Source of the DNA: Rahnella laticis
GTDB lineage: Bacteria > Pseudomonadota > Gammaproteobacteria > Enterobacterales > Enterobacteriaceae
DNA length: 24,000 nucleotides
Assembly: GCF_015644585.1 (NCBI RefSeq)
Contig: NZ_JADOBI010000015.1
Location: 101,751 to 125,750, forward strand
Reading direction: 5' to 3'
In this document: piece after piece, positions 1,733 through 12,900 of the stretch
Position numbering within the stretch: the first letter of the stretch is position 1
Layout of the letters: each line of letters starts with the position of its first letter
The notes under the pieces: generated by a model
Databases searched by the model: none
What the model saw: the letters and a program-made list of their open reading frames with translations, nothing else
What the model was told of the DNA's origin: nothing
Made by a program: the position numbers and the translations under genes

Positions 1733-1764
1733 TTTTTCGATGTTTACAATCTTCTAACGATATT

Positions 1765-1792
1765 AATAAACCAGCACCTGTGCTGGTTTATT
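1765..1792. terminator. Rho-independent terminator, probably bidirectional (argH and the convergent rhs-immunity unit)
   Basis: Perfect 12-bp stem aataaaccagca / tgctggtttatt with loop cctg. A/T-rich runs flank both sides. It sits between convergent gene ends at 1732 and 1850. Confidence 0.75.
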
Positions 1793-1849
1793 AATTTTGA
1801 AAGGACTTTTGTATAATAATTAACAATGGTGTCATTTTTTATAAGCGTG

Positions 1850-2284
1850 TTATTTTTTCATGACGGGCTGTATAAATCCCCCTGAATCAACCAAGAAGCT
1901 AAATAACTCAAATTTGTTGTTTGTTTTGTTTTTTTTATAAGCAAATTCTTCGGCCAAAATATATTTTTTGTACTCGGAAATATAAGTTATTTTAATCAAG
2001 GAATTGTCCTTCTCTAGACTGTATAGGACTCTTGATTTTTCATATGGCCCTAACATTTTCTTCTTTTCCTTCATGAGGATGATAAAGTTCCCTTCAGGCA
2101 TTGCATTTTTGAAATCATTTGACGTCTCTGCATACATTTCCTTTAGGTTATTATCATTGTACTCTGCTTGAAACGTTTTTATTTCAAGTTGTACTTCTTG
2201 CATGTTTTTACTATCACAGGCTGCGATTGTAAAAATCATGACGATCAATATAAAGTATTTGATACAGCTATTATAAATTATCAT
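1850..2284 (-). CDS. small lipoprotein, candidate cognate immunity protein for the Rhs C-terminal toxin
   Basis: ATG at 2284 has AGGA 8-11 nt upstream and lies 7 nt after the rhs stop. The track's GTG at 2305 is an alternative start that would overlap rhs. The N-terminus MIIYNSCIKYFILIVMIFTIAAC has one Lys, a hydrophobic core and lipobox I-A-A-C, with Asp at +2. The gene is very AT-rich (roughly one third G+C by eye) compared with its neighbours. Its position directly 3' of an rhs tip is the usual immunity-gene position. Confidence 0.7.
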   Translation of the reverse strand: MIIYNSCIKYFILIVMIFTIAACDSKNMQEVQLEIKTFQAEYNDNNLKEMYAETSNDFKNAMPEGNFIILMKEKKKMLGPYEKSRVLYSLEKDNSLIKITYISEYKKYILAEEFAYKKNKTNNKFELFSFLVDSGGFIQPVMKK

Positions 2285-2291
2285 GACTATC

Positions 2292-5200
2292 CTAGTCGAA
2301 AGCACATTTAGTTGATTGGTGGCAGGTGATTTTCCCTACAAATGCACCGGCACCTGGCCCTGCTCCAAGCGAGCCAGATTTGTTCCCTGCACTATCTTTC
2401 ATTGCTGTTATCCCAAATTTACCCAACCAGCCTCCGGCACCTCCCCAACCCTCGAGATCGCTTTCTCCGGAAGATACGCTTCCTCCTGATATAGTTCCTG
2501 TAAATGCGCCTCCGGCCGCAATTCCAATTCCTTCATGTTCGCAAAGTGAACGATAGGTACATAGATCCACGCCGATTGGAGACCCTACATTTGTTCCAGC
2601 AGCTAAGCCATATGAATCGTTCCCACCCATAAAGAAATCAAGTGCGTATGACAAATCTACAGAGATAGAACCAGACATTGGTGCATAGTAAGGTCCGGAT
2701 ATCGCTAATAGCGCACCTTCACGATCACTTTCTGACAAATAACGACCAGCTGATTCTGCCGCCTGACCAGTTTGCGATATACCAATTCCAAAGCCTTTTA
2801 GTCCCAAGGCATCGATGTATTGAACAGGATTATTAATGTATATGTATCTATTCCACCCCCCTCTCAACCCAATCGGATCCTGCGTAATATACCGTCCCTG
2901 CGCCGGGTCATAATAACGGTGGCGGTTGTAATGCAGCCCCGATTCCTCGTCGTAATGCTGGCCCTGCATTCTTATGGGCTGGCGCAGTTTGTACGGGTTG
3001 AAAATATCTACCGCGTTGCCCCAGACGTCTAAAATCGCGTCCCATTCCACCTTGCCGGTTTTGTGATTAATCAGCGCCACCGGCGTGCCGAGGTGGTCGC
3101 AGTGGTACAGGTGCAGTTTGAGTTCACCGGCTTCCGGCAGCGGTTCGAGCCATGGCGCGAGATTTTCGGTTTTCAGGCCCACGGAGGCCAGCCACTGCAG
3201 GTGCGCGTCGCTGACGTCGTTCCGGCGGATTTCCTTTTCGATATCATTAAAGCGCTGATGGATGTCGCCGGGGAACGGGCTGCCGGCGTCTTCCTCGAGC
3301 TTTTCCGCCAGCGTGCGGTGGCTGTCTTCCATCCGGGCGTGCTCCGCGCGCAGCAGCGGGACGAAGCTGCCCGGGTGATAAATGGTGTGCAGCTGGGTGT
3401 CGCGGTTCTCGGTCAGCACCAGCCTGTCGCCGTCCCAGCCGAACCAGGTATTCTGCGTTTGTACTTCGCCGGATTGCGGGTTTATCTGGCTGACGTGTTT
3501 GCCCACCCGCCGCCCGAGCGGGTCGTAGATGTAACGTGCCCGCATCAGCGTCTGTCCGTCCTCTTCCGTTGTCAGGCGCGTCAGTCGGTGCGCCTGGTCA
3601 TAGGCCAAATGGCTGATGGCCCCGCCGTTCTGCGGGGTGTGCATCCGGCCCGCGTGGAACGGATGCTTTTCGGTCAGGTTGCCGAATTTATCGTATTCAT
3701 AAAGGTAACATTCATCGCGCTGTACGCGGTTGTGGTACCAGACCGGCCGTGCGTCTTCCGGCGGCACGTTCAGGTCATGGTGCGTGACGCTGCGGTTGCC
3801 GGCGGGGTCGGTCAGGGTGGCGAGAAAGCCGTCGGGGGAGCTGACGCTTTGAAGCCGTCCGGCCGGCGTATAAGCATAGTGATGGTCGCCAAGGCCGGTG
3901 GTCATCTTCGTCATCTGCCCGGCGGTATTGTAATGATAATCGCGCATCAGGTTCGGGTGGCCGACGTCGGGCGTCTTCTGGCCGGCGAGCTGTCCGGTCA
4001 GGGAGTAGGCGTTTTCGCTCTGCCAGTTATCGCTGAACCGGCGGGTGGTTTCGCGGTGCAGCCTGTCGCGGCTGAGTTCGAGCACCACGTCGTGCCCGAG
4101 CTTCACGCCCAGCAGGTGGCCGGGGCCGTAGGTCTGCCAGTGGATTTCCGGCAGGCCGTCGTAGCGGGCCGAGACCTCGAACCCGCGCGGGTCGAACTGG
4201 TGGCGGACGGTGTGCTGCCACAGCAAATCGCCGTGCGCGTTGCGGATAATCTGCCGCTCGCCGGTCAGGCTATCGTTGTCGTCGTACTGGAAGCGCACGG
4301 TGACCAGATGGGTTTCGCTGCGGTGGGCGGTTTCGTTGACGCGCCCGGCGGCGTCGTACTGCCACAGCACCTCGTCCGGACCATCGTCCGTGTCCGGGCG
4401 CTGCTGGCGGATAAGCTGGCCGTCTTCATCGTAGTGCCAGTGCGTAATCAGCCCGGCGTCGTCGCTGCGGATAAGCCGTCCTGATAAGTCGTACAGATAG
4501 TTTTGCACGCGCCCGTCAAAGCCGGTTTCCTGTATCAGGCGGTCCATGACGTCGTAGGCAAAATGCGTTTCTGCGCCGTTTTCATTAACCAGCCGCACCA
4601 GTCTGCCCGCGCTGTCAAATCCGGTCTGCCGAGTGAGCCCGCCTTCGGTCTGCGAGGTCGGGTTGCCGCGCTCATCGTAAGTCTGCGTGGACTGCGTGCC
4701 GTCGGGGCGGGTGACGGTGATGACGTCGCCCGCGGCGTTGTATTCCTCGTGGGTTCTTGCCCCGCTGGCATCTTCGCGAACAATCCGTCTGCCGCGCGCG
4801 TCGTACGCAAAGCGGGTCTTCATCCCTTCTTCGTGCAGGATTTCCACCGGCTGGCCGTCGCGGTTATAGCGGTAAACTGTTTTGAAACCGGAACAGTCGG
4901 TAAAACTTTCCAGCAGCCCCGATGCGTTCCACTCCAGCGTTTGCCGTCCGCCTGCCGCGTCTTCGGTGGCGCAGGGCTGCGCACTCTTGTCGCCGGCGTA
5001 GTGGTAGCGGCGGGTCTGGTTCAGGGCGTCGGTCTCAGCCGTAAGGCGGCCTGAAGAATCGTAGTCTTTACGTATCTGACGTCCGTCGGGCGCGGTGGCC
5101 GTAATCAGCTGCCCGGCGCGGTTATAGCTGAACCGGCTGCGCTTTTCGCCGCCGGGGTGGACGATTTCGGTCAGGTCGCCGCTGGCCGGGTTGAGATGAA

Positions 5201-6473
5201 ACCCGGTGGTGCGCCCGGCGGTATCAGTCTGCGAGGTCAGCCCGCCGCGGCTGTCGAAGGTGCTTTGTACATAACTGCCGTCGGCGTTGTCGAGCCTGAC
5301 CACGCGCCGCAACCCTTTCTCGCCCTCAAAATGATACACGCGCAGCCGCCCGAGGCTGTCGGTGACGCGGGTCTGGTGCGTACTGTATTCAAACTGATAG
5401 TTCAGGCCGCCCGGGTTCACCTGCGAAACAACCCTGCCGGACGCGTCGTACACGTAGCGCGTGGCCGGACGTCCGGCGTAGCGGTGCGCGACCATCAGGC
5501 CGGTGCCGGCTGGTTCCGGATGCCAGTCAAACTGGCGGACAATTTCACCGGCGCGGTCGTACACGGTTTTCAGCTCGCCGCGCGGGGTGTAGTCATAGCG
5601 GGCCAGCGGTTTTGACGGCAAATCCGGAAACGCCGCATCCTTCGTCAGCCAGACGACGGAAAGCCGCACGCCACAGTCAGAACCCCAGGCTGTATTCAGA
5701 ACGGGTCTGAAATCCCGCAGCGTGACTAATTCAAGGCGGAAACGCCGCCCGCAGCTGTCGGTGACGCCGGTAATCTGCCCGGCGAACTCGCCTTCTTCAT
5801 CGCGGTGATAGTTAAGCTGATTGCCGAAACGGTCGGACAAACCCAAAAGCACACGCGACGATGGCAATGGCCGCGGCAGCACGTCTTCAGCGGTTGCGGG
5901 TAACTGCACGCAGCCCAAAATCCACCAGGGTCCGGTGGCGTCGTTGGCCACAAAATAATAGTGCGGGCTGTTGCGCAGAGCTTCCGGCAACGCCCGCCAG
6001 AGCGGACTGAGCGGATGGTTTTCAGGTTGTTTATCCACGCCGCCGCGCGCCAGCCAGAGTTTTTCGCTGTGGCTGAAGGCAATCTGGCCGGGCGGAAGCA
6101 GGTGGAAATGAATGCTGCGCCCGGCATTGTCGTTAAGGATAAGTTCGTCTGCACGGATTTGCAGGCGGATATCCGCCGCCGCCGACCAGCCCGGGCCGAA
6201 CATGCCGACCGGCGCGGGCGTGTCCGTTTTATAGCTGCTGTAAGAACGCGATAGCGCAAAGGGCAGCGGCGCGGGCAGCGCGATATCGGTCTCGCCGGGC
6301 AGAACTTTGGCGCCGAGGGACGGGTTCACGGGGCTGCCTTCCAGCACGCCGCCGGGGCAAACCGAGCAGGCGACGCCCGTAGGTGCGCCAATCATCACGC
6401 CGAGCGAGCCCTGAACAATCGGGCCGCCAATGGCGGTTTTATCGAACTGCCGGGCAGCGGGAAATCCGGTCAT
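2292..6473 (-). CDS. Rhs family polymorphic toxin (PAAR-like N-terminus, YD-repeat shell, variable C-terminal toxin tip)
   Basis: Intact 1393-aa ORF. The N-terminus MTGFPAARQFD..GGPIVQGS..IGAPTGVACSVCPGG..NP.LGAKVLPGETDIALP..LPF.LSRSYSSY closely parallels E. coli/Enterobacter RhsA-type N-termini as I recall them. Many YD repeats are present (YVYDASGRVV, YDSSGRLT, YNRDGQPV, YDARGRRI, YDERGNPT, YLYDLSGRLI, YDAAGRVN, YEYDKFGNLT, YIYDPLGRRV). The core ends RYYDPAQGRYITQDPIGL-x17-DALGL. The core is G+C-rich, as is classic for rhs. Confidence 0.96.
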   Translation of the reverse strand: MTGFPAARQFDKTAIGGPIVQGSLGVMIGAPTGVACSVCPGGVLEGSPVNPSLGAKVLPGETDIALPAPLPFALSRSYSSYKTDTPAPVGMFGPGWSAAADIRLQIRADELILNDNAGRSIHFHLLPPGQIAFSHSEKLWLARGGVDKQPENHPLSPLWRALPEALRNSPHYYFVANDATGPWWILGCVQLPATAEDVLPRPLPSSRVLLGLSDRFGNQLNYHRDEEGEFAGQITGVTDSCGRRFRLELVTLRDFRPVLNTAWGSDCGVRLSVVWLTKDAAFPDLPSKPLARYDYTPRGELKTVYDRAGEIVRQFDWHPEPAGTGLMVAHRYAGRPATRYVYDASGRVVSQVNPGGLNYQFEYSTHQTRVTDSLGRLRVYHFEGEKGLRRVVRLDNADGSYVQSTFDSRGGLTSQTDTAGRTTGFHLNPASGDLTEIVHPGGEKRSRFSYNRAGQLITATAPDGRQIRKDYDSSGRLTAETDALNQTRRYHYAGDKSAQPCATEDAAGGRQTLEWNASGLLESFTDCSGFKTVYRYNRDGQPVEILHEEGMKTRFAYDARGRRIVREDASGARTHEEYNAAGDVITVTRPDGTQSTQTYDERGNPTSQTEGGLTRQTGFDSAGRLVRLVNENGAETHFAYDVMDRLIQETGFDGRVQNYLYDLSGRLIRSDDAGLITHWHYDEDGQLIRQQRPDTDDGPDEVLWQYDAAGRVNETAHRSETHLVTVRFQYDDNDSLTGERQIIRNAHGDLLWQHTVRHQFDPRGFEVSARYDGLPEIHWQTYGPGHLLGVKLGHDVVLELSRDRLHRETTRRFSDNWQSENAYSLTGQLAGQKTPDVGHPNLMRDYHYNTAGQMTKMTTGLGDHHYAYTPAGRLQSVSSPDGFLATLTDPAGNRSVTHHDLNVPPEDARPVWYHNRVQRDECYLYEYDKFGNLTEKHPFHAGRMHTPQNGGAISHLAYDQAHRLTRLTTEEDGQTLMRARYIYDPLGRRVGKHVSQINPQSGEVQTQNTWFGWDGDRLVLTENRDTQLHTIYHPGSFVPLLRAEHARMEDSHRTLAEKLEEDAGSPFPGDIHQRFNDIEKEIRRNDVSDAHLQWLASVGLKTENLAPWLEPLPEAGELKLHLYHCDHLGTPVALINHKTGKVEWDAILDVWGNAVDIFNPYKLRQPIRMQGQHYDEESGLHYNRHRYYDPAQGRYITQDPIGLRGGWNRYIYINNPVQYIDALGLKGFGIGISQTGQAAESAGRYLSESDREGALLAISGPYYAPMSGSISVDLSYALDFFMGGNDSYGLAAGTNVGSPIGVDLCTYRSLCEHEGIGIAAGGAFTGTISGGSVSSGESDLEGWGGAGGWLGKFGITAMKDSAGNKSGSLGAGPGAGAFVGKITCHQSTKCAFD
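2295..2798 (-). other. Rhs C-terminal tip (residues 1226-1393): glycine-zipper-rich domain of unassigned family, predicted released toxin
   Basis: This is the sequence after the DALGL motif (Leu codon 2799-2801). By my count 36 of 168 residues are Gly. Tandem GxxxG runs are present, along with two C-x5-C pairs. Nucleotide composition shifts away from the G+C-rich core. Confidence 0.7.
6339..6473 (-). other. PAAR-like N-terminal motif region of the Rhs protein
   Basis: A literal PAAR tetrapeptide occurs at residues 5-8, followed by GGPIVQGS..V.IG and CSVCPGG. This is the short PAAR-like head seen on enterobacterial RhsA-type proteins. The domain boundary is approximate. Confidence 0.5.
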
Positions 6474-6652
6474 GGGTAAAGTCCTTTTGGGTAAAGCGTC
6501 CGTGGAATGATTGATTTGAAGGTGGGGTATCTATTGTTTTATTCATCAGATAAATACAACAAAATCAAAATGATGACAGAAGCTAGACCTTAAAAGGAGT
6601 GCGCGTTGTGAGGAGGTTCACAGGTATGAGGAATGCAGAATAAGTGAAGGGG

Positions 6653-6674
6653 AAAAGGCGGGCAGGCGTCCGCC
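6653..6674 (-). terminator. weak candidate Rho-independent terminator after the M24 peptidase gene
   Basis: The minus strand reads GGCGG-acgcctgc-CCGCC followed by TTTT, about 17 nt after the peptidase stop. The stem is only 5 bp and alternative pairings exist, so this is modest evidence. Confidence 0.35.
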
Positions 6675-6690
6675 TGAAATTAATCTGGAG

Positions 6691-7776
6691 TCAAAAATAT
6701 TTAATCAACTCACTCATCTCCTCCCAGTCCCGCGGGCTTTTCGTCAGCACTTCGCTGCCGCTTTCTGTTACCAGAACATCATCCTCAATTCTCACACCGC
6801 CCAGACCCGGAACATAAATGCCCGGTTCGATGGTGATCACCATGCCTGGTTCCAGCGGTTGCGTATTTTGCGGGCTGAGCGCGGGGGCTTCGTGGACATC
6901 CAGACCTAATCCATGCCCCAGATTGTGGCTGAAGTACTCGCCAAATCCGGCCGCAGAAATAATATCGCGCGCCACGGCATCAAGTTCCTGACAACGAATT
7001 CCCGGCCTGACGGCGTCGCGTGCGGACTGCTGAGCCAGAAGTACCGTGTCGTATAACGTTTTCAGTTCTGAACTGACGCTGCCCAGTGCGAACGTCCGTG
7101 TCATATCGGAACAGTAATGCTGAAAGACCGCGCCAAAATCAATTGTCACTAATTCACCCGCCGCGAGTTTTTTATCCGTCGGGCGCCCGTGTGGCAACGC
7201 GCCGCGCAGGCCGGAGACCACCACGGTATCAAACGATGTTTTGCTGCCACCGGCCTGACGGACCGCCATTTCTATATGATCCGCCAGCGCTTTCTCGCTG
7301 ATACCTGGCCGGATCAGCGGCTTTATAGCCTGCAAGGCGCGATCGGCAATCGCCGCCGCTTCACGGATTTTCGCGATTTCATCGGCATATTTATGCACAC
7401 GCAGAACCGATGCGTCCCAGTGTTGCAGCGGCGCGTTGCACTGGTTTTCCAGCGTTTTCCAGGCCAGATGAGACAGCGCGCTGGCATCGGCAAACAGCGT
7501 TTCATCACCGGAAATATGCTGCGCAAGAACCTCTGCCAGCGGAAGTTTTGCGGTGAGCGTGACGACTTCTGTGTTGGGATTGTTCTGCCGGCATTCCGCG
7601 CTGTAGCGGCCATCGACCAGTATCAGCAGATGGTCTGCGGTAACCAGCACGTAGCCGGACGCGCTGTAGAGATCAGCCAGCGAATATTTGCTGAATCTGT
7701 CTGTGAGTAAAACGGCGGACATGCGATGTTCTGCCATGTGCTGGCGCAGGACATTAAGGCGTTGCTGACGGCTCAT
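6691..7776 (-). CDS. M24B family Xaa-Pro aminopeptidase/dipeptidase (E. coli YpdF-like)
   Basis: 361 aa, the same length as E. coli YpdF. It has a creatinase-like N-domain plus an M24 pita-bread core with metal-ligand motifs DFGA..YCSDMTRT, HNLGHGLGLDVHE and IEPGIY.PG.GGVRIED. ATG at 7776 is preceded by GGGAGG. Confidence 0.9.
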   Translation of the reverse strand: MSRQQRLNVLRQHMAEHRMSAVLLTDRFSKYSLADLYSASGYVLVTADHLLILVDGRYSAECRQNNPNTEVVTLTAKLPLAEVLAQHISGDETLFADASALSHLAWKTLENQCNAPLQHWDASVLRVHKYADEIAKIREAAAIADRALQAIKPLIRPGISEKALADHIEMAVRQAGGSKTSFDTVVVSGLRGALPHGRPTDKKLAAGELVTIDFGAVFQHYCSDMTRTFALGSVSSELKTLYDTVLLAQQSARDAVRPGIRCQELDAVARDIISAAGFGEYFSHNLGHGLGLDVHEAPALSPQNTQPLEPGMVITIEPGIYVPGLGGVRIEDDVLVTESGSEVLTKSPRDWEEMSELIKYF

Positions 7777-7828
7777 GTTTCCTCCCGTGAGCAGAACAGG
7801 CCGCGGGTGCGCCCTGTCAGGATGGCGA

Positions 7829-9064
7829 TCAGGCGATTTCGAGTAAGCCTTTTTTGATCAGACGGTTGCGGTAGAACACGCAGGTTACGGCGATAAACAG
7901 TGAACCGCCTGCCAGACCAATCAGGTAGGCCGGAATGTTGCTGATCAGCGGCCATGCCCAGATCGCGGATTCCGGGAACCATTGCACCGCGCCGAGCGAA
8001 ACCCCCAGCAGCGCGCCGATAATGGCCCCGATCACGTACACCGGGATCACAAACCCCGGACGTTCGAGCGCAAACGGAATAGACCCTTCGGAAATCCCCA
8101 TAAAACCGAGGAAAATCGCGGTGCGGCCAATCTGGTTGAACTGGCGATCGTAAACACGCCGCCCGACCAGCCATTTGTCGATCACCGTCGACAGCCCGAG
8201 ACCGAACGAAGGAATAACGACCGCCAGACAGCGCGCGGTGATCGGCAACACTTTTTCCGTCGTAAAGCCGAGCGCCACGAATCCGGCGGCTTTGTTCACC
8301 GGACCGCCGAGATCAAACGCCGTCGCCGCTGCCAGTAAGGTTGCGTAGAAATACGTGCCCGCCGCGCCTGCGGCCTGCAAGGCTTCACGGATGAGCGTGT
8401 TCAGCCAGCCGCCAATTGGGGTTATCAGGAAAACCATCAGCAACATCGCGACAATGGCGGAAATCAGCGGGATGAAGAAGGTGGTTTTGAATGCCAGCCA
8501 GTTGTGCGGCAGTTTGATGGTGTTGTTCAGCCAGCGGACGAAATAGCCCACGACGAAGGCAATCACGATAGCACCCAGAAAGCCTGAAGCGACCGGCGCA
8601 GCGGCTGCCCATTCACCATTGATCAGAGCCGGAATAGCGACAGGTTTAATCGAGACATAACCGCCGATAAACCCGGCCGCCAGCGCGGTTTTGCCGCCGA
8701 TAGAGTTGGCGGTAAATGCCGCGAACATCGGAATAGCGAAGCCAAAAAGCGTGAAACCGAAGCTTTCCATGATGCTGGCGATTTGCAGCATCCAGACTGA
8801 ACTGCCGCTGAAGCGCCCGCTGTTGAGCGCCGCCATGATGGATTCGTCCGGCGACATTCCCAGAAAAACATAAGGAATGATTTGCGACAACGCGCCAATC
8901 AGACCGCCCATGATCAGCACCGGGATCATGTAGGAAATGCCGGTCATGATGTGTTTGCTGAATTCTTTCCAGGCATGGCTCTGGCCTTTACCCGCTGGCC
9001 CCGCAGACGGCGTGTCGGACGCCTGGCTGTGACCGGTATTAATGACTCTTTTTCTTATCGCCAC
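7829..9064 (-). CDS. PTS fructose-family EIIC component (E. coli FryC-like)
   Basis: 411-aa polytopic membrane protein. Motifs FAIPMFAAF.ANSIGGK, GGP.NKAAGFVA and FMGISEG.IPFA match fructose-subfamily IIC, and there is strong resemblance to FryC as I recall it. GTG start at 9064 has AAGGAG 6 nt upstream. Confidence 0.9.
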   Translation of the reverse strand: MAIRKRVINTGHSQASDTPSAGPAGKGQSHAWKEFSKHIMTGISYMIPVLIMGGLIGALSQIIPYVFLGMSPDESIMAALNSGRFSGSSVWMLQIASIMESFGFTLFGFAIPMFAAFTANSIGGKTALAAGFIGGYVSIKPVAIPALINGEWAAAAPVASGFLGAIVIAFVVGYFVRWLNNTIKLPHNWLAFKTTFFIPLISAIVAMLLMVFLITPIGGWLNTLIREALQAAGAAGTYFYATLLAAATAFDLGGPVNKAAGFVALGFTTEKVLPITARCLAVVIPSFGLGLSTVIDKWLVGRRVYDRQFNQIGRTAIFLGFMGISEGSIPFALERPGFVIPVYVIGAIIGALLGVSLGAVQWFPESAIWAWPLISNIPAYLIGLAGGSLFIAVTCVFYRNRLIKKGLLEIA

Positions 9065-9100
9065 GGAAAACTCCTTGCGCTTAAAAAAGCAAAAGTGGGA

Positions 9101-9421
9101 TCACTGGGCCTGATCGGCCTCAATCTCATCAATCAGGCCGCCGGCATTTTTCACTGCATCTTTCAGTTCAACTTCATACACTTCGACGCCGTTAAAACGC
9201 TCGATATTTTGCGGCGTAATGCCGGTAGCGTGGATGATGACCGTAGCCTGCGCGATATCTTCTGCCGTCAGTTCGTTCTGAATGCCGTCGGCACCCTGTG
9301 TTTCAATTTTCACGTCATAACCGCGCTGGCGGGCGGCGACTTCAATGGCTTCGGCGGCCATAAAGGTATGAGCAAGACCCATCGGGCAGGCGCACAGCGC
9401 AATCAGTTTTTTTGCAGACAT
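9101..9421 (-). CDS. PTS fructose-family EIIB component (E. coli FryB-like)
   Basis: 106 aa. The N-terminal KLIALCACPMGLAHTFMAAEA contains the phospho-cysteine loop of PTS_IIB_fruc. ATG at 9421 has GAGG upstream, and the RBS overlaps the stop of the upstream M20 gene. Confidence 0.9.
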   Translation of the reverse strand: MSAKKLIALCACPMGLAHTFMAAEAIEVAARQRGYDVKIETQGADGIQNELTAEDIAQATVIIHATGITPQNIERFNGVEVYEVELKDAVKNAGGLIDEIEADQAQ

Positions 9422-9427
9422 CGTGAA

Positions 9428-10813
9428 TTACCTCGTGTTATCGGAAGAAGCGGCGGGCAGATTTGCCAGCCGGTAAAGGGCTTCGGCGTAGATGCCGATG
9501 GCACTGATAAAACGGCTCAGGCTGCCGTATTCGTCCGCGCCGTGTGTATTGCCTGAGGAGCCGTCGGGAAATTCGCAGCCAAAAATCACCGCGTTTTGCA
9601 TTGCGCTGGCGTAACTGCCTGCGCCTGTGGTGCGCGACGGGTGGTTTGTATCGCCGGTATGACGGGTGTAAATCTCGTGCAACGTCTTCACCAGCGCGCT
9701 GTCCGGCGGATAAAGGCTGGGTGATTTGACCGGCTCAATGTTGATGTGGCTGTCAGGCCAGCTGAGGTTCCAGATCGAGAGCCGTTCAGCGATATTTTCC
9801 GGGGTCAGGTTTTCGGGATAACGGACGTTCAGCGTCAGCGACATCATCCCGTTCTTGATGTTCAGGACGACGGGAACCAGCAGGATCTGACCGCATTCTC
9901 CCGGCGTATCCAGCGCGAATTGCACGCCGCTCTGGCCGGTTTCTGGCGCGGTGATTTCGCAAAGTTGTTGTGTCCAGCGTGCGCTGAAACGCTGATGAAG
10001 CAGTTGTGCGGCACCGGCAATCGGATTCAGACAGGCTTCTGGTTTTGAGGAGTGTCCGCCGCAACCATAAAGCTGCCAGTGATTAATTTGCCCCGGCTCG
10101 GCCAGCAACGTAAAACCGTCGGGTAACGTCCAGCCGCCGGAGGAGAGCGACAATCCGTTCAGCCGGGCGACGTCCGGGATGGTGTTCAGCACGCTGCCGC
10201 AGGATACGGTCAAATCAGGCTGTTCAACCGGCGACGTCAGCCTGACCAGCAAAGAGCCTTTTTCGCCGTAAATCACCGGGAATTTTCCGTCCGGCGTGAA
10301 AGCAAAGTCAGGTTGCGGCTGCGATTCAAAATAGCGGCGAATGCAGCGGAAACCGGTCTCTTCGTTGCCGCCCGCCACCAGCCGGATGCGGCGTGAGAGA
10401 GGAAGATTCAGTTCACGCAGAATATCCAGCGCCAGCCAGGCGGCAATCATCGGGCCTTTGTCATCCACGACGCCGCGGCCAATCAGATTGTCGCCCAACC
10501 GCGAGAGCTGATACGGCGGAAAATGCCAGCCGTCACCGGCGGGAACTACGTCAGCGTGACCGAAGACATACACGATTTCCTCGCCGCTGCCGTATTCAAT
10601 ATGGACGGCGTGGTTGTCGACATTGAGCGTGTTCAGCCCGGCGTCGTCGCCGAGTTTTTGCCACCAGCTGAGCGCGTCGGCAACGCCACGGCCAAAAGGC
10701 GCATCCTGCTGCTGGCTGGCTGCGTCGAACGGCGAAGGGATCGCCACCCATTGGGCGAGTAAGGTGAGGAAATGCTGCGCCCGATCCCGGGCATGCGCTG
10801 CGAAGTCAGTCAT
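9428..10813 (-). CDS. M20 family dipeptidase (PepV/Sapep-like)
   Basis: Motifs FGHADVVPAGDGW, GRGVVDDKGP and GGNEETG are M20A metal/catalytic signatures. I prefer the ATG at 10813 (GGAGGG 9 nt upstream). The track's GTG at 10843 and the ATG at 10837 are possible alternatives. Confidence 0.88.
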   Translation of the reverse strand: MTDFAAHARDRAQHFLTLLAQWVAIPSPFDAASQQQDAPFGRGVADALSWWQKLGDDAGLNTLNVDNHAVHIEYGSGEEIVYVFGHADVVPAGDGWHFPPYQLSRLGDNLIGRGVVDDKGPMIAAWLALDILRELNLPLSRRIRLVAGGNEETGFRCIRRYFESQPQPDFAFTPDGKFPVIYGEKGSLLVRLTSPVEQPDLTVSCGSVLNTIPDVARLNGLSLSSGGWTLPDGFTLLAEPGQINHWQLYGCGGHSSKPEACLNPIAGAAQLLHQRFSARWTQQLCEITAPETGQSGVQFALDTPGECGQILLVPVVLNIKNGMMSLTLNVRYPENLTPENIAERLSIWNLSWPDSHINIEPVKSPSLYPPDSALVKTLHEIYTRHTGDTNHPSRTTGAGSYASAMQNAVIFGCEFPDGSSGNTHGADEYGSLSRFISAIGIYAEALYRLANLPAASSDNTR

Positions 10814-10926
10814 TGACGTTAACCCTCCGAAAAACATGGTCACAGCATTGGGTCTGGCGGAAAAACCGTCAAAAGGCAGGGTTCAGAATTGATAAATAAA
10901 ACGGGTAAAATTTTTCGCCGGTTTTT

Positions 10927-11949
10927 TTAAGCAGAAGCGAGAAACGCCGGAGATACCTTCAGACGCGGGTCGTCAGGCAATAATGACTCTCCGGCCAGCT
11001 GCGCATGCAGGCATTCCACTGCCCGCGTCGCCATCTCGGTATGACGTGCGGCAACCAGTGGCAAAGCCAGTTTCAGGGAATGTTCGCACTCGCCGAAACC
11101 CGTCAGTGCGATGCGCCGCGAGAACAGCCGCCACCGGGAGGTTTGCAAACCCTCGGCCAGCGCGTGATGCGCGGCCAGTAATACTGTCGGGTTGTCGCAA
11201 AGGATCGCGGAAATTTTGGGGCTTTGTTTAATGAGCTGAGTGACTGCGCGGAAGCTGTCGTCAAACGTTGCCGCGCAGGGCTGACTTAACGATGCGGAAA
11301 ACGCCAGACCGGCTTTCCCGAGCGCGAGGGAAAGGCCGCCCAGCCGCTCGGCGCGAACCAGCGAATGATTTTCCCCGCCGAGATAACCAATATTCTGATG
11401 CTGTTGTTGAAGTAACGCGTCCGCTGCCATGTGTGCGGCCAGCGCATTGTCGGGATGAATTGTCGCGAGCGGACCGGTATGGAAATGCGTGCCGACGGCG
11501 GTCAGCGCCACATGCCGCGCCGTCGCCCGCGCATGCAGGGCTTTCAGCGTATCAGGCTGTGCATTGAGTAATTTCCCGCAAACGAAAATCCCGCGCACGT
11601 CCTGCGCCAGAAGCTGCGCGGCGTGCTCCAGAAGCGTTGAGGTGTCTGCGTAGCCCGGTATAAGTGTGAAGCCGGTTTGTTGCAGCGCACGGGACAATTC
11701 GGGGAGTAAACCGGCGGCGAAAGCGCAATCCGGTGAAAGCAGAATGCCCGATCGTGTGAAAGGTGTGACTGACGGCGTGGCCGGCAAACGGTAACCGAGC
11801 TGATCGATAGCCTGATAAATGCGCTCCACCCCTTCGGGGGATATCCGTCCTTTGCCGCCGAGCACCAGCGAAACCGCCGCAACGGAAACGCCTGCCAGAC
11901 GCGCGACATCCTGCTGAGTAATTTTAGTGCGGGGTTTTTGCGCCGTCAT
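10927..11949 (-). CDS. LacI family transcriptional regulator
   Basis: N-terminal HTH ITQQDVARLAGVSVAAVSLVLGGKGRISPEGVERIYQAIDQLGYR followed by a periplasmic-binding-protein-like sugar-binding fold. ATG at 11949 is preferred over the track's TTG at 11979. The start is moderately uncertain. Confidence 0.88.
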   Translation of the reverse strand: MTAQKPRTKITQQDVARLAGVSVAAVSLVLGGKGRISPEGVERIYQAIDQLGYRLPATPSVTPFTRSGILLSPDCAFAAGLLPELSRALQQTGFTLIPGYADTSTLLEHAAQLLAQDVRGIFVCGKLLNAQPDTLKALHARATARHVALTAVGTHFHTGPLATIHPDNALAAHMAADALLQQQHQNIGYLGGENHSLVRAERLGGLSLALGKAGLAFSASLSQPCAATFDDSFRAVTQLIKQSPKISAILCDNPTVLLAAHHALAEGLQTSRWRLFSRRIALTGFGECEHSLKLALPLVAARHTEMATRAVECLHAQLAGESLLPDDPRLKVSPAFLASA

Positions 11950-12025: not shown

Positions 12026-12054
12026 ACAAAAAAATGGCGGGCACTAAGCCCGCC
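12026..12054 (-). terminator. Rho-independent terminator downstream of the Prx-Grx gene
   Basis: The minus strand reads GGCGGGC-ttagt-GCCCGCC (7-bp GC stem) followed by ATTTTTTTGTTT, about 85 nt after the stop at 12139. Confidence 0.8.
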
Positions 12055-12138: not shown

Positions 12139-12900
12139 TTATTGTGCAACTTCGCACACTTCTTGTGTTTCTGAATGCAGGTAAACGTCCAGATCGTCGC
12201 TTCCGCCGATGTGGCGCCCACCGATAAAGACTTGCGGCACGGTCGCGCGGCCGGTGACAGCGCGCAGGCTGACGGTGGTGGCGTCTTTGCCCAGTACGAT
12301 TTCTTCATACTGAATACCGCGTTCCTGCAACATCTGCTTGGCTTTGGCACAGAACGGGCAGCCCGGTTTGGTGAATACGGAAACCGATTCCTGCACTTTG
12401 TATTCTGGTGCCAGGTATTTCAGCATTGTGTCTGCATCTGACACTTCAAACGGGTCGCCCGGTTTGTTTGGCTCAACGAACATTTTCTCGACCACGCCGT
12501 TACGTACCAGCATGGAATAACGCCATGAACGCGGGCCGAAACCTAAATCCGCTTTCTCGACCAGCATGTCCATGCCTTTGGTGAATTCACCGTTGCCGTC
12601 CGGAATAAAGGTAATGTTCGATGCCTTCTGTTCTGATTTCCAGGCATTCATAACGAACGTGTCGTTAACGGAGACGCACAGAATGCTGTCGACGCCGTGT
12701 TGTCTGAATACCGGTGCCAGTTCGTTGTAACGCGGCAGATGGCTTGAAGAACAGGTCGGGGTAAATGCGCCCGGCAGTGAAAAGACAATCACTGTTTTGT
12801 TTTTGAACAATTCATCGGTGCTGAGATCTACCCACTGATCGCCCTGGCGGGTGTGAAAAGTAACGTGCGGTACGTGTTTCCCTTCCTGGCTTGCAAACAT
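12139..12900 (-). CDS. hybrid peroxiredoxin-glutaredoxin (Prx5-Grx fusion, Haemophilus PGdx-like)
   Basis: The protein is colinear with H. influenzae hybrid Prx5 as I recall it. It has the peroxidatic site [13 protein letters not shown], then a Grx domain with the CPFC active site and [13 protein letters not shown]. It ends with about 11 extra residues carrying one more Cys (QEVCEVAQ). ATG at 12900 is preceded by AAGAGG. Confidence 0.92.

Follow-up and report, generated by a model that had tools for sequence, protein, structure and literature searches.

To our knowledge, the peptidase-bearing phosphotransferase system (PTS) clusters fry, frv and sgc of Escherichia coli have been without a known substrate for decades. 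Two other E. coli systems are also relevant here: MngA and MngB, which are the PTS for 2-O-alpha-mannosyl-D-glycerate and a GH38 hydrolase, and malI-malX-malY, for which we know of no established physiological substrate either. We analyzed a stretch of 24,000 nucleotides from Rahnella laticis (the window, whose coordinates are used throughout; its host contig, C7, is 126 kb long) and in it a cluster of five minus-strand genes spanning positions 6691-11949. They encode a LacI-family repressor, an M20 dipeptidase, the fructose-type PTS subunits EIIB and EIIC, and an M24 peptidase. We propose, with moderate confidence, that this is a trimmed and chimeric Fry-family cluster of a PTS with peptidases, which would have been derived from a Firmicute, placed under the control of a MalI duplicate, and used for the uptake of glycosyl peptides.

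An earlier note on this DNA had given the order of the genes as lacI, M20, EIIB(Fru), EIIC(Fru) and M24. This order was confirmed by the open reading frame (ORF) map and the family models, and the ORF map showed no other credible ORF within 6691-11949. The gaps listed in the note were exact (6 nt for M20-IIB, 36 nt for IIB-IIC and 52 nt for IIC-M24), and the gap of 113 nt between lacI and M20 had been omitted. The same arrangement recurs in nine other Rahnella-clade loci and, in an extended form, in about 14 Firmicute loci; therefore, the gene order is not a product of chance.

The comparison was made on 56 related loci gathered from genome contigs, with genes sorted by ORF clustering; the search patterns missed the EIICs of the E. 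coli Fry type. The EIICs of these loci were 56-100% identical to the one in the window. In the Firmicute loci of what we call type A (about 14 loci) the order was M20, a PRD/Mga activator with an EIIA domain, EIIA, EIIB, EIIC, M24 and a PatB C-S lyase. Three lyases were scored with TIGR04350 (cut-off 340 bits): two passed, with 351 and 353 bits, and the one from Streptobacillus was just under, with 333. The closest EIICs outside Rahnella belonged to Clostridium, Pelosinus, Lucifera, Acetonema and relatives (69-73% identity). In a sample of 200 genomes from the family, the remaining ones had at best an EIIC of the FryC type, at 52-54% identity.

In the maximum-likelihood tree of EIIC, the ten Rahnella-clade rows formed a single group with support 100. 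We observed that this group lies within the clade of the type-A Firmicutes (Clostridium, Pelosinus, Lucifera) with support 95, and that E. coli FryC pairs with a Solobacterium sequence elsewhere in the tree. Relative to FrwC, the Rahnella EIIC and FryC fall in the same clade. The constraint of monophyly of the Rahnella sequences with FryC changed the score by -36 log-likelihood units (p-AU 0.041 in the approximately unbiased, AU, test). Descent of the cluster as a vertical orthologue of E. coli fry was rejected by the EIIC tree together with the AU test.

The two peptidases point in the same direction. The Rahnella M24 sits on a long branch whose sister group is the M24 of the type-A Firmicutes (support 83); the YpdF of enterobacteria is separate (support 100). 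The nearest relatives of M20 outside Rahnella are Firmicute proteins with 42-48% identity; the next ones, of the generic PepV kind, reach no more than 37%. At least eight of these Firmicute relatives have a longest contig of the same size as that of an EIIC or locus match. The reading that the four structural genes appear to have come together, from a seven-gene operon of Clostridia and Negativicutes, is well supported, as is the acquisition of this set, long ago, by the ancestor of one Rahnella clade. The suggestion of the earlier note that an M20 enzyme had replaced the M42 enzyme of a fry operon does not hold, since the Firmicute donor operon already had this M20 subfamily. As a separate observation, the M20 subfamily of the cluster includes a 324-member sequence cluster of Clostridioides difficile (44% identity), a species which may carry the full operon.

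In Rahnella, the pair of activator and EIIA was removed cleanly, because M20 now abuts EIIB at a distance of 6 nt; the lyase was also lost. No remnants of activator, EIIA or lyase were detectable on C7 by tblastn.

The regulator has other relatives. The best NCBIfam model for the repressor was MalI (NF007449), with 169 bits and a cut-off of 310; the true MalI of the same genome scored 527 bits. Identity to E. coli MalI was 34% overall, with 22 of the 29 residues of the helix-turn-helix (HTH) identical. Only two relatives at E <=1e-30 were found in 1.84 billion representative proteins, namely a full-length Rahnella protein and a 133-aa fragment, and the nearest ones outside the Rahnella clade were the MalI proteins of Yersinia, Aeromonas and Orbaceae (33-35% identity). 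Judging from the model scores, the HTH identity and these nearest relatives, the repressor is a fast-evolving duplicate of the host MalI and not a gene of the donor operon. The LacI repressor that the earlier note had regarded as added to a fry-like set is thus present, and is better described as a paralogue of the host MalI. On this comparison, the cluster is a chimera of foreign structural genes and a duplicated host repressor. The ATG start of lacI at 11949 was kept in all ten loci. The true malY-malX/malI locus is at C21:51543-55692, with a canonical MalI box GATAAAACGTTTTACC at C21:54453.

A candidate operator was found by cross-species footprinting of the lacI-M20 spacer in the ten Rahnella-clade loci: a block of 25 nt was nearly invariant, with variable spacer on its flanks (coordinates are given in Table 1). 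The block contains a MalI-box half-site, CGTTTTAT, and has TTTTACC as well as the 11-mer TTTTATTTATC in common with the malI-malX spacer of E. coli (the E-value of 0.009 for the 11-mer comes from a small search). Directly downstream of the block, a -35-like element, GCCTTTTGAC, and a -10-like ATGC core were kept in 10 of 10 loci. We consider that the repressor probably binds this MalI-box-like candidate operator just upstream of the M20 promoter, and that TTGACG-17-AATGCT probably is that promoter, a weak or activator-dependent one. A simple consensus scan did not report this promoter-like site; within the cluster it gave no promoter or terminator that was convincing, and it predicted no terminator from the M20 promoter region as far as the 3' end of M24. 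Perfect inverted repeats were absent from the spacers of the cluster. There were no further copies of the candidate operator in the genome with up to four mismatches allowed, so neither an EIIA nor a lyase is co-regulated. The sequence TAAAACGTTTTA likewise has a single occurrence in the genome.

Sixteen nucleotides past the stop codon of M24, there is a hairpin with the stem AGGCGG/CCGCCU followed by UUUU, a weak one that the consensus scan did not call. Given this hairpin 3' of M24 and no predicted internal terminator, M20-IIB-IIC-M24 is probably a single transcript. The one transcript proposed in the earlier note can be retained for these four genes. It holds less well for lacI, which is set off by the gap of 113 nt with its conserved promoter-like and operator-like block and probably has its own transcript start. 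Still, lacI precedes the structural genes on the same strand and no terminator follows it, therefore transcription could read through into them.

For the window cluster and the nine other Rahnella-clade loci, we computed dN/dS and dS. The values of dS in the cluster were about 0.1-2.7, and for most pairs they were within the range of the neighboring genes oxyR, sthA, argH and prx-grx. Such values indicate vertical inheritance since an old acquisition. The GC content was 53-60% in the cluster, 52.9% in the genome and 35-50% in the donor genes; a recent transfer was rejected on the grounds of both dS and GC. We observed dN/dS of 0.02-0.08 for EIIB and 0.01-0.05 for EIIC, the same as in the housekeeping neighbors, and 0.08-0.19 for M20, M24 and the repressor.

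Among the genomes of 19 Rahnella species, ten had a full-length EIIC, eight had none and one, the sister species G213, had a remnant (G213:C1:1100000-1118000, at approximately 7412-10151 of that locus). There, deletions corresponding to window positions 8247-9322 and 9624-11017 took most of EIIC, EIIB and M20 as well as the end of lacI, leaving a truncated lacI and an intact M24 with 95% identity. The cluster is kept by selection in most of its carriers, yet it is dispensable.

The proteins themselves belong to well-defined families. M20 scored 310 bits on TIGR01887 (the Sapep family), above the cut-off of 208, and its closest solved relatives were Sapep (3KHX/3KI9) and PepV (1LFW). Its start is the ATG behind a GGAGGG ribosome-binding site, and a longer GTG-initiated ORF begins at 10843. 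The metal and catalytic motifs HADV, DDKG, NEET, TPD and THG are kept, and so is the lid arginine, the residue mutated in 3KHZ, which we take to bind the free C-terminal carboxylate of the substrate in PepV and Sapep.

The resemblance of EIIC, EIIB and M24 to FryC, FryB and YpdF, pointed out in the earlier note, was borne out at the level of families. EIIB scored 101 bits on TIGR00829 (cut-off 77); it is 70% identical to FryB and has the same phospho-Cys motif, CACPMGLAHT. EIIC matched PF02378, was slightly under the cut-off of 157.55 on TIGR01427 with 145 bits, and was 53% identical to FryC over its full length; no solved structure matching it by sequence was found. M24 scored 335 bits on the YpdF model NF007310, under the cut-off of 393, and was 45% identical to E. 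coli YpdF, which is also its closest solved relative (5CNX, E = 7e-88). All five metal-ligand motifs (DFGA, SDMTRT, GHGLG/VHE, EPG and RIED) are present.

The statement that no EIIA is encoded locally was correct: EIIA_2 (PF00359) had no match on the whole of C7 and 11 matches elsewhere in the genome. The supply of EIIA from elsewhere, which the earlier note had assumed, has candidates as well, since three fructose-class donors exist, namely FruB, an EI-HPr-EIIA protein like PtsA/FrwA, and a stand-alone EIIA(Fru) on C4 that adjoins its own IIB and IIC. The remaining EIIAs are of the PtsN, mannitol, ascorbate and galactitol types. A FryA-like protein (43% identity) is encoded just once, on C6 and adjoining frwC-frwB-pflD-pflC-frwD, and no homologue of the M42 enzyme YpdE was found in the whole genome by tblastn with YpdE. 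Two PatB-family lyases pass TIGR04350, MalY on C21 and a second one on C19. With such EIIA donors and lyases elsewhere in the genome, both the phosphotransfer and the last, lyase-catalyzed step could take place in trans.

Two of these genome-wide observations deserve a separate record. The second PatB-family C-S lyase, at C19:228677-229825, scored 403 bits on TIGR04350. Also, at C2:181975-183894, about 1.2 kb from ptsN, there is a gene for a Mga/PRD-type regulator of 639 aa whose C-terminal domain is an EIIA (AcpB/EbpR/MafR-like and FrvR-like); it is a type of regulator unusual for an enterobacterium.

The partners of the related transporters bear on the substrate. The EIIC was accompanied by a GH38 MngB-like alpha-mannosidase in 30 of the 56 loci, by peptidases and a PatB lyase in 14, and by the lyase alone in three; the other nine (and the window) have the Rahnella form. 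The GH38 protein scored 750 bits on the mannosylglycerate hydrolase model, which is under its cut-off. The EIICs linked to GH38 share 56-68% identity with that of Rahnella, and the types are interleaved in the EIIC tree; for example, the lyase-only EIICs of Streptobacillus are nested in the GH38-type clade of Leptotrichia with support 99. A search for extra conserved genes in the GH38-type loci showed no consistent glycerate kinase or mannose-6-P isomerase. Neighborhood clustering of FryC-like EIICs, as recommended in the earlier note, shows that peptidases co-occur in the Rahnella form and the 14 Firmicute loci and do not in the GH38 or lyase-only types. One Clostridiales locus (L038, 5598-6987) has a second, distant pair of Fru-type IIC and IIB (31% and 46% identity) directly upstream of its GH38-type set.

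Since one EIIC backbone swaps a mannosidase for a pyridoxal phosphate-dependent beta-lyase with peptidases, the pattern would most simply reflect a constant sugar head group with a varying aglycone, glycerate in one case and a Ser-, Thr- or Cys-linked amino acid or peptide in the other. The head group is perhaps mannosyl. We infer that a sugar-amino acid or sugar-peptide is the substrate best supported by the comparison; of the conjugates suggested in the earlier note, the partner enzymes favor the glycosyl form and speak against the glycated (Amadori) form. The Pro-rich context of O-glycosylation sites is one that an Xaa-Pro peptidase fits. Literature searches on a PTS with a C-S lyase and dipeptidase, on the fry, frv and sgc peptidases and on PatB with a PTS found nothing relevant; papers on C. 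difficile, which deal with its malY-CD3029 PTS operon and with other Xaa-Pro peptidases, could not be tied to the cluster.

The mechanism that we propose would run as follows. A fructose-class EIIA acting in trans (FruB, the PtsA/FrwA-like protein or the EIIA on C4) would phosphorylate the conserved Cys of EIIB. The EIIC would then import and phosphorylate a glycoside, perhaps a mannoside, whose aglycone would be an amino-acid residue of a di- or tripeptide. M24 would remove the N-terminal residue preceding Pro and M20 would cut the remaining dipeptide-like bond. Finally, resident enzymes would split the phospho-glycosyl amino acid, for which the two PatB-family lyases, including MalY, are candidates. 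Control has passed to the fast-evolving duplicate of the host MalI, and either the substrate or a phosphorylated product would lift its repression.

Several points weigh against this explanation. The AU test was marginal and was framed after the tree had been inspected, and the placement of M24 with the Firmicutes had support of only 83. The Rahnella peptidases are on long branches, evolving 3-5 times faster than the transporter, and their specificity may have shifted. The sister species G213 carries two deletions through the cluster, and tblastn showed apparent frameshifts in M20 of R. woolbedingensis (about position 7357 of locus L012) and in lacI of R. bruchi (about 5834 of locus L061), which are possible pseudogenes or draft-assembly errors; together, the deletions and these frameshifts in type strains make the system dispensable. 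The mannoside idea comes solely from the neighbors of related transporters. Since the candidate operator occurs only once in the genome, the repressor controls neither a sugar-phosphate enzyme nor a lyase, and the end of the pathway is therefore pure inference. The literature searches found no paper naming a substrate for any Fry-type system.

Among the alternatives, the one that survives best replaces the glycoside by an amide or amino-acid derivative that is hydroxylated or can be phosphorylated in another way; N-acyl amino sugars, amides of sugar acids and Hyp/Ser/Thr dipeptides are examples. M20 and M24 would then act as amidohydrolases. Relatives of the two enzymes in NCBIfam do include the ArgE/DapE deacylases, ectoine hydrolase and DddP, and neither the Rahnella nor the type-A clusters contain a glycosidase. 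However, the top matches are true peptidases (Sapep/PepV, YpdF and prolidases), the metal sites are complete and the lid Arg is kept, while the GH38 alpha-mannosidase that accompanies relatives of the EIIC argues that the transporter recognizes a sugar head group. We consider this alternative unlikely.

We give still less credence to the view of the cluster as a decaying, non-functional remnant, in which there is no working pathway without EIIA, activator and lyase. The deletions in G213, the frameshifts of M20 and lacI in two type strains and the eight of 19 species lacking the cluster are what it would lead one to expect. Yet purifying selection is strong on all five genes at dS of 0.5-1.7, the ORFs are intact in most species, the promoter/operator block is conserved and the catalytic motifs are intact.

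Held with the same low confidence as that view is an extension of glycosyl-peptide uptake, in which a minimal Fry core of transporter and two peptidases would be tied to MalI-MalX-MalY. The MalI-like repressor would sense the same class of inducer, and MalY or PatB would act in trans by beta-elimination on phospho-glycosyl-Ser or -Cys. If this were true, fry and malXY, which have long been orphans in E. coli, would represent the same kind of pathway, one that handles amino acids and peptides with a glycosyl group.

An ordinary PTS of the fructose or mannose type, with the peptidases as unrelated passengers, is more doubtful again. It agrees with the name given to the EIIC at NCBI ("PTS fructose transporter subunit IIC") and with the matches to general Fru-family models. 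On the other hand, the linkage of peptidases to EIIC survived a cross-phylum transfer and recurs in fry, type A and Rahnella with gaps of 6-52 nt, the M20 subfamily was observed solely next to this transporter, and FruBKA and further Fru-type systems are already present in the genome.

Least probable of all is the uptake of Amadori or Heyns products of amino acids or peptides, an option raised in the earlier note: peptidases could trim glycated peptides, and PTS uptake of fructoselysine and glucoselysine reportedly occurs in Salmonella (gfr), but a deglycase, fructosamine kinase or SIS-domain enzyme was found in none of the 56 loci or, for deglycase and kinase, in the window, which makes Amadori compounds unlikely, the sister operons carry a glycoside hydrolase, and the known Amadori PTS are of the mannose family and not the fructose family.

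The observation made in the earlier note was thus confirmed and its first interpretation was partly supported; the type of cluster was already known. What is new here is the placement in a Firmicute clade, the clean gene losses, the MalI-paralogue repressor with its operator-like block, the analysis of selection and the remnant in a sister species. The Rahnella form amounts to a natural reduction experiment, in which M20-EIIB-EIIC-M24 alone were kept, under selection, after a cross-phylum transfer, which marks these four genes as the functional core. In addition, it clearly illustrates how an operon of foreign origin was brought under a duplicate of a regulator of the host. Its main value is that of a tractable model for finding the substrate of a Fry-type system: Rahnella is easily grown and genetically tractable, and with a simple repressor/operator switch the question becomes testable, which is much harder in the anaerobic Firmicutes with the full operon.

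Table 1. Genes and candidate regulatory elements of the Rahnella laticis cluster, in window coordinates.
Feature	Position	Strand	Evidence
LacI-family repressor gene, divergent MalI paralogue, 340 aa	10927..11949	-	Pfam LacI HTH + Peripla_BP_1
Candidate operator, 25-nt block AAAATTTTACCYGTTTTATTTATCA	10890..10914	-	Cross-species conservation
Promoter-like site TTGACG-17 nt-AATGCT	10844..10872	-	Cross-species conservation
M20 dipeptidase, Sapep/PepV-like, 461 aa	9428..10813	-	TIGR01887
PTS EIIB, fructose type, 106 aa	9101..9421	-	TIGR00829
PTS EIIC, fructose family, Fry orthogroup, 411 aa	7829..9064	-	PF02378
M24B Xaa-Pro peptidase, YpdF-like, 361 aa	6691..7776	-	PF00557 + Creatinase_N
Terminator-like hairpin 3' of M24	6653..6675	-	RNA fold

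On one side of the cluster, window positions 1738-6703 hold an Rhs toxin gene and a small downstream gene, an insertion specific to the lineage of the source strain. This Rhs stretch is missing in the close relative G213, where both flanks have 94% DNA identity, and in Rahnella sp. AA the ORF map shows argH immediately behind M24, with neither the Rhs gene nor the small gene present. On the other side, a gene for a hybrid peroxiredoxin-glutaredoxin (Redoxin and Glutaredoxin domains) lies at 12139-12900, divergent from oxyR, with a strong terminator by it at 12036-12054.

Compared with known systems, the cluster resembles MngA/MngB and the Firmicute and Fusobacteria EIIABC-GH38 operons in having an EIIC of the fructose family; however, there is no GH38 gene in the Rahnella window, and MngA is a distant, fused EIIABC (116 bits on its model, with a cut-off of 763). 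The gfr, frl and fra systems for Amadori compounds differ in that the Rahnella transporter is of the fructose family and no gene of deglycase or fructosamine kinase accompanies it. With malI-malX-malY of E. coli the cluster shares a repressor that is a MalI paralogue and a block resembling the MalI box, and its Firmicute relatives also join a PTS to a PatB-family lyase. In contrast, MalX is a glucose-family EIICB unrelated to the Rahnella EIIC, and Rahnella has its own malI-malXY on C21.

The likeness to E. coli fryB-fryC-ypdF-ypdE-fryA lies in the split EIIB and EIIC of the same orthogroup, in the YpdF-type M24B enzyme within the operon, and in that neither cluster has a sugar-phosphate enzyme or lyase. 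Conversely, Rahnella lacks FryA (EI-HPr-EIIA) and the M42 enzyme YpdE, has M20 and another gene order, and has a LacI/MalI-type repressor where E. coli has the neighboring AraC-type YpdC; in the tree, FryC and the Rahnella EIIC fall into separate groups. The type-A operons of Clostridium sp. OS1-26, Lucifera butyrica and Pelosinus have the same M20...IIB-IIC-M24 order, with identities to Rahnella of 69-73% for EIIC, 61-68% for EIIB, 39-47% for M20 and 40-46% for M24. What sets Rahnella apart from them is that the PRD/Mga activator, the EIIA and the PatB lyase are absent, while the repressor is of proteobacterial origin.

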